NCBI GenBank assembly: GCA_026387355.1
Contig: JAPLLW010000007.1
Span: forward strand, 42,198-106,197
Reading direction: 5' to 3'
DNA length: 64,000 nucleotides
Origin: Candidatus Omnitrophota bacterium
Lineage (GTDB): Bacteria > Omnitrophota > Gorgyraeia > Gygaellales > Profunditerraquicolaceae
The position numbers were made by a program, and so were the translations under genes. Below, one piece after another: positions 28,481 to 44,126 of the stretch; the stretch's first letter is position 1; each line of letters begins with the position of its first letter. The notes beneath the pieces are model-generated. The model saw nothing but the letters and a program-made list of their open reading frames with translations. It searched no databases and was not told where the DNA came from.

Positions 28481-28509
28481 ATTTTACCCTAGTTAGGGGA
28501 TTTTGTCAA
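28481..28509 (-). promoter_or_regulatory. sigma70-type promoter for guaB-guaA
   Basis: Minus strand TTGACA, 17 nt, TAAAAT: a perfect -35 and a near-consensus -10. Predicts an ~85-nt leader ending in the AGGAGA SD 8 nt before the ATG. Confidence 0.6.
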
Positions 28510-28520
28510 TATTTATTTTT

Positions 28521-28625
28521 TAGCGTCTGGCTTGTCTTGTTTCTCGCGGGGACGCTTGTTTTGCCCCAGCGTGGCAAAACTGCGCTCGGGCCGGCTGGCG
28601 TCGCTCTCTGACATAAAAGTGACGG
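28521..28625 (-). ncRNA. GC-rich structured element, copy 1 (E1), homologous to 29283-29392
   Basis: Stands out as GC-rich against AT-rich flanks. 8-bp hairpin GTTTTGCC[CCAGCGT]GGCAAAAC at 28558-28580. On the minus strand the loop reads ACGCTGG. About 75% identity to E2 over ~110 nt, with compensatory stem changes. Strand assignment is arbitrary. Confidence 0.35.
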
Positions 28626-28707
28626 AATTGTGCGTGCACATCTGACTTACAACTCATATTTCTCAATTCTTATTCCTCCTGTTACCGTTTTTAAGATAGC
28701 GTGCCAT

Positions 28708-29040
28708 TTATTTTTTTGTCTTTGAAATTAGTTTTGAAATAAGCCAACCGATACCATACCATTGCAATCCGCCAAGAATTGAAGCTAAAGCAGGAATAAG
28801 GATGAACGGAGAAACCTTATAAATGTTATCAATGAAATCGGATAAAGGCATAATGACAAAAGTAGCAGGAATTTCCATTCCTAAAATCGCTACTAAACCA
28901 AATCCCCTGCTGGTATTCAAGCTGTCAAGATAAGCGATAGTTATTACTATTGCCGCATTAACTATGGCAAGAAGCAAACCTAACTTACTAATCTTTGCCC
29001 AGTTCACTCTTGCCTCCCTCTCCAAAGCTTCCAGTTTCAT
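28708..29040 (-). CDS. Small membrane protein (3 predicted TM helices), function unknown
   Basis: 110 aa. Native AT-rich codon usage. Charged N-terminus followed by three hydrophobic segments. No match to CrcB or SMR signatures. Confidence 0.55.
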   Translation of the reverse strand: MKLEALEREARVNWAKISKLGLLLAIVNAAIVITIAYLDSLNTSRGFGLVAILGMEIPATFVIMPLSDFIDNIYKVSPFILIPALASILGGLQWYGIGWLISKLISKTKK

Positions 29041-29204
29041 AAAAGGTTGATTAAGTATATTTTACCAAGGATTTCAGGAAATGGTATCAATTTTGTGAGA
29101 GGGTTTGTATAGACGAATGTATGCCCGTTCATTGCCGACACCGCCCTCACTCGAAATCAAACCAAGTCATCCGCTAGGTTATCTCTATCAATATTGATAA
29201 AGCT

Positions 29205-29425
29205 GCTATAGTCCTGACTTGGCTGTGGTTGAGCGGGGCGTCCGAGGATGCCGAGCGGGCACGGTTCGCCTTCTACAAGCGAAGCCAGCGAGAGCGAGGC
29301 ACCGCAGGTCGAGTGCAGTTGCGGCACGCTGGGCCGCAACAAACGTACCCGCGAAAACACAGGCAAGGCAGGACCTACTCGAAAATAATAAGGGCGAGAG
29401 TATTGAATACCCTCGCCCTTATATT
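29205..29425 (+). ncRNA. Candidate structured RNA (E2) ending at the groEL bidirectional terminator
   Basis: Noncoding and visibly GC-rich (the six-frame ORFs here are Arg/Ala-rich noise). Long-range helix 29211-29230 pairs with 29355-29374 (17 of 20 positions). Internal 8-bp hairpin GTTGCGGC[ACGCTGG]GCCGCAAC at 29318-29340. 3' end at the terminator hairpin. Confidence 0.4.
29391..29422. terminator. Bidirectional rho-independent terminator (groEL, minus strand; E2 RNA, plus strand)
   Basis: GGGCGAG…CTCGCCC stem. U-tract on the minus strand (TTATTATTTTCG) just 3' of the groEL stop, and on the plus strand (TTATATTGTT). Confidence 0.8.
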
Positions 29426-29448
29426 GTTAAATATTTGATTCTATGGGT

Positions 29449-31104
29449 TTAGTACATTCCTCCGCCCATACCGCCCATTCCACCCATTCCTCCTGGTGGC
29501 ATTCCGCCGGGCATCTTATCATCTTTTTCAGGCTTATCAGCAATCAAGGCCTCGGTAGTTAAAAGCAATGATGCTATACTCGCAGCATTTTGTAACGCTG
29601 AACGCGTAACTTTCTTTGGATCGATTACGCCTGCCTCGATCATATCCACATAATCATCCTGAGAAACATCATAACCTATGTTTATTTTTTCTTGTTTTAC
29701 TCTTTGAACGACAACTGAGCCTTCCAGTCCTGCATTTTGAACAATCTGTCTGATTGGCTCTTCCAATGCACGTTTGACTATATCAACTCCGATCTTTTCA
29801 TCCCCTTCTAACTTTAATTTGTCTAATGCAGGGATGCAGCGGATTAAAGCCACGCCACCGCCAGGGATAATCCCCTCTTCGACTGCTGCACGGGTAGCAT
29901 GTAAGGCATCTTCTACGCGAGCTTTTTTCTCTTTCATTTCGCTCTCTGTAGCAGCGCCAACATTAATTACTGCAACTCCGCCTGCAAGTTTCGCTAGACG
30001 TTCCTGCAGTTTCTCTTTGTCGTAATCGGAATCAGTATCATCGATCTGTTTTTTAATTTGGGCAATACGTGCATTAACCTGTGCTTGTTTTCCCGCACCT
30101 TCAACGATAGTTGTATTTTCTTTATCGATTTTTACTTTCTTAGCGCGGCCAAGATCATCTAGGTCAACATTCTCTAGCTTTATGCCTAAATCTTCAGTTA
30201 GAGCTTTTCCGCCTGTTAAGATTGCGATATCTTCAAGCATTGCTTTGCGTCTATCGCCGTATCCGGGTGCTTTTACTGCGCAGGAAACAAACGTCCCTTT
30301 AAGCTTGTTTACAACTAAAGTTGCCAATGCTTCGCCGTCAACCTCTTCAGCAAGAATCAAAAGCGGTTTTCCTGTGCGGGCAATTTTTTCTAACAAAGGA
30401 AGCAGGTCTTTTAAAGATGAGATCTTTTTCTCATGGATTAAGATATAAGCATCCTCTAAGACGCATTCCATTCTTTCAGCATCTGTAACAAAATAAGGCG
30501 ATAGATAACCTTGATCAAACTGCATACCTTCTACTAATTCTAAGGTGGTAGCAGTTGTTTTAGCTTCCTCTACGGTAATTACGCCGTCTTTGCCAACCTT
30601 TTCCATTGCTTCAGCGATTAAGTCCCCAATGGCAGTATCGCCATTAGCAGCAATAGAAGCAACTTGGGCTACTTCTTTTTTTTCTTTTACGTTGATTGGT
30701 TTGGTTAATTTAGCTAATTCTTCTACGGTTCTTTCTACCGCTTTCTCAATTCCGCGCTTTAAGGCCATGGGATTTGCTCCGGCAGTAACATTCTTTAAGC
30801 CTTCGCGATAGATTGCTTCGGCTAAGACTGTGGCTGTAGTGGTGCCATCACCTGCGATATCGGATGTTTTCTCGGCAACTTCTTTAACCATCTGAGCGCC
30901 CATATTCTCATATGGACATTCCAAATCGATTTCTTTGGCCACCGTTACTCCGTCTTTGGTGATAGTAGGCGAACCGAATTTCTTATCAATTACTACATTG
31001 CGTCCTTTTGGGCCGAGTGTTACTTTAACTGCGCGAGCTAATTGCTCTACGCCACTGAGTAATTTTCTACGCGCTTCATCTTGGTACAATAACTGCTTAC
31101 TCAT
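29449..31104 (-). CDS. groL: Chaperonin GroEL
   Basis: Full-length. C-terminal GGM repeat tail ([15 protein letters not shown]). Confidence 0.97.
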
Positions 31105-43140: not shown

Positions 43141-43223
43141 TTCATTGCCGAAACTATAAGTTCGGACATATAACTTATGTTCGTTCTACCTTACGGTGAG
43201 TACTCCATAAGTCATGTCCTCAC

Positions 43224-44126
43224 TTAGAAACCTCCGCCGCCTCCGCCGCCACCGCCGCCTCCGCCGCCAAATCCGCCGCCACCACCCCCAAAACTGCCAC
43301 CCCCAAATCCACCTGAACTTCCTCCGGAATAGTTTTTACCACTACCTAAAACCATTAAACCTAAAAGAATCCATTTCCAAAAGCTTTTTCTAGTTGTTTT
43401 AGGAGTGCTTCTCCATATGAAGTATCTTAATATAATTGCTCCAAGATAACCAATTAAAGGGAAAAGCCCCATAATTGGTGATGCCTGGGCAAACCCGGCA
43501 GCAAAGAGTAAGGTTGCCGGTAATCCAATAAAAATAGGCCAGGGTATATTCCATAAGAAAAAGAAACCTAAAACAAAAATTGCTCCCGTAAATTTACTAA
43601 AGTTATTACCGAACTTTGCCAGGCTAGTATTGCTATTTTCGCTTGGCGAAGATTTATCTCCAGAGAGCCTTTCGGCAACTTTTGAAACTCCTATATAGAG
43701 GCCTTGCGAATAGTCGCCGCTTTTAAAATACGGGACCATATAATTGCGGCCAATTTCTCCGCATAAGCCATCAGGTAAAACCCCCTCTACGCCGTATCCT
43801 GTTTCAATACGCCAGCGTCTTTCTTTCACGGCCAAAAGGATTAATACTCCGTTATCCTTTCCTTTCTTTCCGGGCTTCCATTTATCAAAGAGCATGCGGG
43901 CGTAATCTGTTTCGCTATACGGTGCAATCGAACTTACCGTAACAACCGCAATTTCCGATGTAGTCTTTTGTTCTAAATCCTGTATAAGAGCGTTTATCTT
44001 TTCCTTGTATTTCTGGGTAATTACTCCGGCAAAATCATTAACCCATCCGGAAGGCTCAGGTATATTTTGCGCAAAAGCTAGTAAAGGTAAAAACAAAAAT
44101 AAGGTAGCTACGCAAAATCTACGCAT
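43224..44126 (-). CDS. TPM-domain protein with TM segment and Gly-rich C-terminal tail
   Basis: Signal peptide, TPM phosphatase-like domain, TM region, then a (G)n tail encoded by a GCC/GGC simple repeat (43227-43300). Confidence 0.75.
   Translation of the reverse strand: MRRFCVATLFLFLPLLAFAQNIPEPSGWVNDFAGVITQKYKEKINALIQDLEQKTTSEIAVVTVSSIAPYSETDYARMLFDKWKPGKKGKDNGVLILLAVKERRWRIETGYGVEGVLPDGLCGEIGRNYMVPYFKSGDYSQGLYIGVSKVAERLSGDKSSPSENSNTSLAKFGNNFSKFTGAIFVLGFFFLWNIPWPIFIGLPATLLFAAGFAQASPIMGLFPLIGYLGAIILRYFIWRSTPKTTRKSFWKWILLGLMVLGSGKNYSGGSSGGFGGGSFGGGGGGFGGGGGGGGGGGGGF

Follow-up and report, generated by a model that had tools for sequence, protein, structure and literature searches.

The groES-groEL and guaB3-guaA genes of a Candidatus Omnitrophota bacterium lie on the minus strand of a 64,000-nucleotide stretch of contig JAPLLW010000007.1 (GenBank assembly GCA_026387355.1), hereafter called the window, and the spacer between them carries two copies of a structured element that we term E. 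Reading along the minus strand, groES-groEL is followed by an intrinsic terminator, the full-length copy E2, a 14-bp palindrome, an open reading frame (ORF) for a 110-amino-acid protein, the degenerate copy E1, a promoter, and finally guaB3-guaA. The GuaB3 protein encoded here shares 100% identity with an NCBI entry from a metagenome-assembled genome of this phylum, and an exact look-up of the GroEL sequence gave no record. The window has an overall GC content of 40%, and positions 29180-29406, which include E2, reach 66%. There are only two such GC-rich islands in the window. The other, at 43163-43354, was considered as an extra copy of E and rejected, as it is the coding, Gly-rich end of a minus-strand ORF (GGGGGGGGFGGGG-type). 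An initial annotation had described E2 as a discrete structured RNA with an operator-like palindrome and its own terminator, an architecture taken as typical of a trans-acting or regulatory RNA gene. Covariation bears out a discrete structured element. It does not behave as a single trans-acting RNA gene, since it is multicopy, lacks a conserved promoter and occurs in either orientation in operon spacers. We find that E2 is almost certainly one copy of a multicopy, GC-rich, ~180-nt structured interspersed family of Candidatus Omnitrophota.

Members of this family were recovered by scanning JGI metagenome contigs with a degenerate pattern in which the hairpin stem was left free. Among the 90 loci that this pattern returned, 83 are true relatives: 7-8 of their 8 stem positions are paired, their contigs have 37-50% GC, and they align with E2 over its full length. 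The other seven are chance matches in GC-rich contigs. In all, 120 fetched loci (labelled L001 onward) were examined. For one distant member, L042, the named best matches of the neighboring gene are Omnitrophota proteins only. No copy of E was found in 2.9 million viral contigs searched with two patterns, or in a phage collection or a plasmid collection. When the window was compared with Rfam 15 at gathering thresholds, only tRNAs passed and E2 gave no match; at E ≤ 10, nothing credible was found on E2 within positions 28900-29600. The best sub-threshold matches are an L20 leader, which overlaps the terminator and scores 25.5 of the required 58.7 bits, and sraA, with 19.6 of 56 bits. The earlier negative calls for 6S RNA, RNase P, tmRNA and signal recognition particle RNA are thereby confirmed, as all Rfam models are negative. 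Ten further family members likewise gave no match on E at E ≤ 1, and the family is not described in the one paper of the searched library that links Omnitrophica with RNA motifs, which relied on Rfam annotation. The E family is absent from Rfam 15 and was previously uncatalogued.

An alignment of 62 full-length members produced with MAFFT contains 40 invariant and 33 nearly invariant columns, and a consensus fold was derived from RNAalifold together with column covariation. A long closing stem, P1, leads through a tandem G-A/A-G motif into a second helix, P2 (GCGGGG/CCCCGC), and then into a three-way junction with two arms. P1 is composed of an outer AGCGGG/CCCGCU helix (with flanking U/A runs that covary), a conserved bulge, ACAGGA, on the 3′ side, CUUGGNCUG paired with CAGNCCAAG, and UUUC/GAAA. 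The long arm, P3, encloses a near-invariant internal loop, formed by GAGCGGGCAYGG and AGCGA, and a variable hairpin. The second arm, P5/P6, is a hairpin whose loop, ACGCUGG, is invariant and whose stem varies in sequence among copies (TTTTGCC, TTGCGGC, GCGCGGC, CCCCGCC and others).

The proposed helices are well supported by covariation. In the MAFFT alignment of 62 copies, 85% of the predicted pairs are formed, versus 73% after shuffling and ~45% when pairing partners are slid, and the covariation measure is 0.318 (shuffled 0.119). A model-based alignment of 77 full-length copies gives corresponding values of 89%, 72% and ~45%, with a covariation of 0.415 (shuffled 0.134). Here, changes on both sides are seen at 43 of the 52 pairs, and none of 500 shuffles attain the observed values; an alignment of this type is biased toward the structure to which it was fitted, but the independent MAFFT alignment gives a concordant result. 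Across the 77 copies, pairing in the P1/P2 helix block reaches 92%, with 17 of its 21 pairs changing on both sides, and the top pair of P2 covaries between G-C (53 copies) and A-U (21 copies). In P3, covariation is seen between subfamilies (ACCC/GGGU, UGCC/GGCA and GCCCC/GGGGC). The middle of this arm aligns poorly, at 60% paired, because the subfamilies differ in register.

Folding energy alone cannot name the active strand of E, because the closing helix forms on either one. The minimum-free-energy fold of positions 29200-29425 contains this helix on both strands, with energies of −102.7 and −100.9 kcal/mol and z scores of −5.3 and −5.4, and none of 200 shuffles fold as well. The distribution of G-U and A-C combinations is more informative. 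In well-aligned helices, G-U outnumbers A-C by 163 to 26, and by 63 to 26 when two conserved U-G pairs are left out. (The raw ratio is 167:123; its additional A-C cells come from the misaligned middle of P3 and were excluded.) Because G-U exceeds A-C in these helices, we conclude that the fold is selected on the strand that is the plus strand of E2, which we refer to as the E-sense strand. The excess does not depend on the direction of the flanking genes, being alike for sense (13:4) and antisense (19:4) copies. A coding role for E was rejected on the basis of frame and indel pattern: none of the frames stays open throughout the 77 relatives, and indel lengths are not multiples of three, in agreement with the earlier view that the ORFs predicted over this region are non-coding.

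E2 itself is about 165-178 nt long (29207/29211 to 29374/29384), shorter than the ~220 nt first assigned to it. Its long-range closing helix, already noted in the initial annotation, corresponds to the family P1 and has 17 of 19 positions paired, with two single mismatches; thermodynamic folding adopts it as proposed. The ACGCTGG hairpin recognized at the same time, GTTGCGGC-ACGCTGG-GCCGCAAC at 29318-29340, is likewise upheld, with an invariant loop and compensatory changes in its stem, and is equivalent to P6. The TTCGC stem also exists, but with GCGAG at 29288-29292 as the partner consistent with the family, and not with GCGAA as had been suggested. E2 departs from most relatives at three places. 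The outer part of its 5′ strand, GTCCTG, forms a helix with CAGGAC, a segment that most relatives leave bulged and unpaired; a G-A mismatch stands in place of the top P2 pair; and P3 has an extra bulged U. The coordinates of all features are collected in Table 1.

Table 1. Positions of element E copies, their structural parts and adjoining features in the window.
Feature	Positions	Strand	Evidence or remarks
E2, full-length copy of the structured repeat family	29207..29384	+	Covariance model R1, 141.4 bits, E 3.5e-38, model positions 1-183; nhmmer E 9e-37
P1 closing helix, 5′ strand	29211..29230	+	Pairs with 29355-29374; mapped onto the family structure
P1 closing helix, 3′ strand, with conserved CAAG.CAGGAC motif	29355..29374	+	Family alignment and mapping
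Tandem G-A motif (29231-29232 opposite 29353-29354), then P2 5′ strand GCGGGG	29231..29238	+	P2 pairs with 29347-29352
P3 long arm, 5′ strand	29239..29252	+	Pairs with 29298-29311; subfamily covariation
Near-invariant internal-loop sequence GAGCGGGCACGG, opposite AGCGA at 29293-29297	29253..29264	+	Invariant or nearly invariant columns, 62 sequences
Variable hairpin (Pvar), base TTCGC/GCGAG opening with a conserved U-G pair	29265..29292	+	97.6% paired; U-G in 71 of 77 copies
P5/P6 hairpin, invariant loop ACGCTGG (29326-29332)	29313..29344	+	98.7% paired; 6 of 8 stem pairs change on both sides
E1 3′ part, inverted degenerate copy; P2/P3 5′ strands missing here	28512..28630	-	nhmmer, hidden Markov model positions 75-179, E 1.2e-22; covariance model 52 bits
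E1 5′ part (P1 to GGGCAT), head-to-head with E2	29121..29177	-	nhmmer, hidden Markov model positions 3-58, E 1.1e-4
14-bp perfect palindrome TATCAATATTGATA	29186..29199		In the 29-nt spacer separating the 5′ ends of E1 and E2
ORF for a 110-amino-acid membrane protein, cargo or insertion	28708..29040	-	Between the two parts of E1; from the ORF list
guaB3 promoter TTGACA, 17 nt, TAAAAT	28481..28509	-	Directly outside the E1 3′ end; aligns with the promoters of relatives
groEL intrinsic terminator, outside E2	29388..29422	-	16-bp stem, then TATTTTCGAG; equivalent hairpin in relatives lacking E
groES-groEL	29449-31104	-	Upstream end of the minus-strand gene order

E1 and E2 are arranged head-to-head. 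When the E2 region was compared with the window by blastn, an inverted copy of its 3′ half appeared at 28527-28608, with 77% identity over 84 nt. The hairpin stems of the two copies differ at three base pairs, all of them compensated, and the ACGCTGG loop is identical. By eye, the 5′ part of E1 is ~78% identical to the 5′ part of the copy in L030. Judging from the sequence, E1 is best read as one minus-strand copy whose variable hairpin is interrupted by ~475 nt carrying the ORF. It could instead represent two adjacent remnants, given that a short GGGCA..TTC.GTC-like segment is found on both sides of the ORF. The product of this ORF is a three-helix membrane protein with homologues that are 60-81% identical in other contigs, where they sit in variable regions, some of them beside split tRNA-like fragments and an rve integrase (L019-L022). 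None of these homologues has an E beside it, and thus the ORF is not a regular partner of the element.

Comparison with related genomes indicates how this arrangement may have arisen. We examined six relatives (L001, L006, L116, L117, L119 and L120) in which GuaB3 is ~89-92% identical. In all six, groEL is directly upstream of guaB3, the spacer of ~200 bp consists only of a terminator and a promoter, and there is no GC-rich E element in it. The spacer in the window measures 1,060 bp, and the extra ~870 bp is bounded exactly by the 3′ ends of E2 and E1. This block, composed of E2 and the interrupted E1 with its ORF, lies between the groEL terminator and the guaB3 promoter. On this comparative evidence, we read E2 at this locus as a lineage-specific insertion. 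The spacer is a variable spot, since another relative, L004, carries four unrelated genes at the same position. Separately, a GC-rich stretch (0.64) lies between a pantothenate kinase gene and groES at L001 1399-1510; the E model gives no match there.

The wider family shows a similar independence from its surroundings. Both neighboring genes are within 450 nt for 41 copies. In 38 of these cases the two genes point the same way, and the copy, which is in the sense orientation 17 times and antisense 21 times, often fills the whole spacer. Orientation is also unrelated to local GC skew, which on the E-sense strand is positive for 20 copies and negative for 29 (p 0.25). The neighboring genes are diverse and of housekeeping type (uvrC, tmk, purD, purM, recJ, lysA, ribF and others), and among them there is no conserved partner gene of the kind that would mark a riboswitch, a toxin-antitoxin system or an RNA-guided enzyme. 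A cis-regulatory leader or riboswitch was considered and fails on both counts, orientation and diversity of neighbors. No upstream position from −80 to −1 is conserved in more than 52% of copies; a sigma70-like −35/−10 pair (the only promoter type scanned) precedes 6 of 70 copies, and a terminator-like site occurs within 100 nt downstream of 2 of 68.

Copies are frequently paired or clustered. In addition to the two copies in the window, paired copies are found in L026, L036, L072, L093, L098, L105 and L108, and neighboring copies are head-to-head in 8 of 13 pairs (p ~0.006 by our own binomial estimate). Small membrane-protein ORFs lie between head-to-head partners in the window, L026 and L093. 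The densest cluster, in L091, has five copies within 5.7 kb of a 7.9-kb stretch, and hardly any intergenic spacer there is free of one; the copies fall into three diverged types, all of them with an intact structure. Partial copies are common, and the break points of truncations and insertions cluster at the variable hairpin. Some mini-copies retain only P1 and the G-A motif (L072 1463-1540, L112 67-147 and L098 3903-3998), and solo 3′ ends of 30-35 nt are stacked behind, and downstream of, a full copy in L101 and L037. The element has terminal inverted repeats, with 5′ TTTAGCGGGTGGCTTGG... being an imperfect inverse of 3′ ...CCAAGACAGGACCCGCTAAA, and these are indistinguishable from the RNA helix.

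Certain positions appear to have been held for long periods. Four contigs, with UvrC proteins that share 54-66% identity, carry a sense-oriented E just upstream of uvrC. The corresponding copies of E are 61-80% identical, roughly tracking protein identity, with 6-12 compensated pairs per comparison. For tmk and purD, two contigs each have E upstream; compensatory change was measured for the uvrC and tmk pairs.

Other repeats occur in the same contigs. A second structured element, X, is ~250-340 nt long and has a long covarying closing stem (AATGAATCTGNCG..TTTCTCGCTCAAG / CATTCGCTCGAAA..CGNCAGATTCATT). It is present in L030, L033, L057, L068, L069, L088, L094, L097, L100, L106, L115 and L091 (for example, at L068 5423-5757 and L100 940-1285) and is not found in the window. 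X is usually located 20-130 nt 5′ of a copy of E on the same strand, and its stem sequence brackets a copy of E in L026, L040, L079, L112, L027, L052 and L062. The X copy in L097 has no Rfam match; this contig, which also carries E, contains a flavin mononucleotide (FMN) riboswitch at 1533-1676 on the plus strand (RF00050, 115.9 bits). The cluster in L091 (1-7898) is array-like, with small, unrelated and mostly hypothetical genes, copies of E in the orientations −, −, +, −, − and one copy of X, and recalls a cassette array. At three break points, the same ~55-nt sequence, aaattgacgctctcaccactgtggaagtgtcaacagatctccgaacgtgtaca, abuts a 5′-truncated E (L037 ~2700-2768, L041 ~1290-1350 and L054 ~1660-1720); it may represent one end of an insertion sequence (IS) that inserts into copies of E. 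A third shared intergenic block (...cgtaaatccttgcgcacttttgcc.aaaattttctaatg...) is found ~100-300 nt upstream of E in L064/L103 and L038, an indication that these genomes contain several families of repeats in a mosaic arrangement.

On balance, and with only modest confidence, we conclude that E behaves as a non-autonomous mobile or dispersed repeat whose folded form corresponds to one defined strand. We favor this over a set of RNA genes because of the insertion polymorphism bounded by the element ends, the multiple copies, the orientation, which is random with respect to transcription and to GC skew alike, the lack of promoters and terminators, the deletions that retain the ends, the nesting and the head-to-head pairing. 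Under this model, the ~870-bp block would have been inserted as a unit. A trans-acting enzyme would recognize the element ends (P1, and especially the 3′ ...CAAG.CAGGAC...), the strand-specific fold would reflect a single-stranded copying intermediate of DNA or RNA, and resident copies would be transcribed passively with neighboring operons. Several observations weigh against a mobile repeat. No transposase, integrase or reverse transcriptase recurs beside the copies, and no autonomous parent element with the same ends is present, among the neighbors of the 83 copies (whole genomes were not searched for such a parent). Target-site duplications are lacking as well, with 70 of 72 copies having no flanking direct repeat, the same as for shuffled flanks. 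The ~40 invariant unpaired bases and the three-way junction go far beyond the needs of known miniature inverted-repeat transposable elements (MITEs) or repetitive extragenic palindromic (REP) elements, and the missing GC-skew bias speaks against a lagging-strand mechanism of the IS200/IS605 type. Moreover, the uvrC-linked copies look old and vertically inherited, with a fold maintained by selection, unlike a purely selfish resident.

The main rival, a serious one on account of these old copies but in our estimation less probable, is that E is a functional structured RNA selected by the host, either a multicopy trans-acting RNA or part of a ribonucleoprotein (RNP), a ribozyme, or a cis-acting operon-spacer module for mRNA processing, stability or translation, with mobility being only historical. 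Such a role would account for the complex, strongly covarying fold with its invariant bases, the G-U excess on the sense strand, the diverged yet intact paralogues within a single contig, and the positions kept upstream of uvrC (four loci), tmk (two) and purD (two). In many sense copies the next start codon follows 10-25 nt past the element, making E part of the downstream mRNA, and the majority sequence from −10 to −5 relative to the element start weakly resembles TATAAT, with A at −9 in 52% of copies. However, half of the copies are antisense to their own operon and yet keep the sense-strand fold, no promoter or terminator is conserved, and the 5-45 bp that separate head-to-head copies are too few to accommodate two promoters. 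The many truncated, ends-only and chimeric copies, the lineage-specific insertion in the window and the lack of any common class among neighboring genes also fit poorly with host function. A rather unlikely scenario is that E constitutes a new ~180-nt, Omnitrophota-specific class of structured RNA, marked by its three-way junction and invariant loops, either propagating through a single-stranded intermediate of sense polarity, such as an RNA that an enzyme acting in trans would reverse-copy to DNA (making E a bacterial counterpart of short interspersed elements), or serving as a host-domesticated, multicopy catalytic or RNP RNA at sites like the uvrC leader.

It is highly improbable that E2 is a single autonomous regulatory RNA gene of ~220 nt, with a repressor acting at the palindrome TATCAATATTGATA and its own terminator at 29388-29419, which was the proposal of the initial annotation. 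The palindrome, closing helix and hairpin do exist, the fold is far more stable than those of shuffled sequences, and the terminator stem has T-rich flanks on both sides. Nevertheless, the window contains 7 perfect 14-bp palindromes, a number that 29 of 100 dinucleotide shuffles also reach (shuffle expectation 5.4 ± 2.1), and this one occurs at none of the 120 loci; its only other match in the window has 2 mismatches, which is again at chance level. Neither an operator nor a regulon is indicated, and the palindrome is an incidental feature of the head-to-head junction. The strong GGGCGAG/CTCGCCC hairpin at 29388-29422 ends groEL, as had been claimed, but it does not belong to E2: it passes the terminator scan on the minus strand only, relatives without E have an equivalent hairpin, and 66 of 68 family members have no terminator downstream. 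No sigma70-like promoter precedes E2 on the plus strand, and the element is multicopy. E2 is therefore not a repressor-controlled small RNA gene. We also regard as improbable, though slightly less so, that E is an orphan from a known RNA-guided or single-strand transposon system, representing either its DNA end or a guide or scaffold RNA, such as the omega RNA of IS200/IS605 TnpB (PATE), the HEARO RNA of IscB, the bridge RNA of IS110 or the msr-msd of a retron. Its size, strand-specific fold, multiple and truncated copies and lack of target-site duplication fit such systems in a general way. Against this, none of the Rfam models, including those for HEARO, IS605-orfB, group II introns and retron-type RNAs, gives a match, and 0 of 83 copies adjoin or overlap a gene resembling tnpB, iscB, an IS110 recombinase or a reverse transcriptase. 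The largest cluster of neighboring proteins comprises 6 loci and, judging by eye, resembles TPR-type repeat proteins. The unbiased orientation with respect to GC skew and the missing copies in the viral, phage and plasmid sequences likewise run counter to this idea.

Among known repeats, the enterobacterial ERIC/IRU sequences offer a close behavioral parallel. These are intergenic repeats of about 127 bp that form essentially one imperfect palindrome. Like E, they are non-coding and multicopy, occupy the transcribed spacers of co-directional genes in either orientation, have ends that are paired in a long stem, vary in presence among related genomes and include internally shortened or expanded variants. 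E differs in its three-way junction, invariant unpaired bases and strand-specific G-U pattern, and in being a GC-rich element in an AT-rich genome of another phylum, with no sequence similarity to ERIC/IRU. REP units are hairpins of 20-40 nt mobilized by RAYT transposases, which are of the HUH tyrosine type. E resembles REP, BIME and REPIN elements in having a structure on one strand, no target-site duplications, frequent inverted doublets, long persistence and a place in repeat mosaics, where E adjoins or nests with X. In contrast to REP units, it spans ~180 nt with several helices, and no RAYT-like gene is found among the neighbors of its copies (whole genomes were not searched). MITEs such as Correia/NEMIS, RUP and Nezha share with E their small size, non-coding nature, inverted termini, multiple copies and insertion polymorphism, together with deletion derivatives that retain the ends and composite-like pairs that flank small genes. 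Unlike MITEs, E lacks a target-site duplication, and no IS that shares its ends and could be its parent was found; its internal helices covary, and its conservation runs deep across genomes and extends into unpaired bases.

The large orphan RNAs raiA, HEARO, ROOL and OLE, classes from the Breaker laboratory, usually occur in a single copy or a few copies with characteristic gene neighborhoods. Like these RNAs, E is an intergenic island of high GC content whose complex fold is backed by covariation and whose loops contain invariant bases; it is distinguished from them by being dispersed, randomly oriented and often truncated, with no Rfam match to any of the four. The behavior of E is closest to that of ERIC/IRU, REP/REPIN and MITE-type repeats, and the complexity of its fold closer to that of the large orphan structured RNAs. 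The lack of an Rfam match, a target-site duplication, a short hairpin unit and an associated enzyme gene places E in none of the classes compared.

The Omnitrophota are uncultivated, ultra-small bacteria and, to our knowledge, their non-coding repertoire has been annotated with Rfam only. With the covariance model R1 and the accompanying alignment, such GC-rich islands can be masked or labeled during annotation, so that Arg/Ala-rich ORFs or small RNA genes are not called within them. E joins the behavior of a selfish repeat with the conservation of a functional RNA, a combination seen in few dispersed bacterial repeats. Identifying its active strand and molecule, whether RNA or single-stranded DNA, could reveal a new mobilization mechanism or a new class of RNA.

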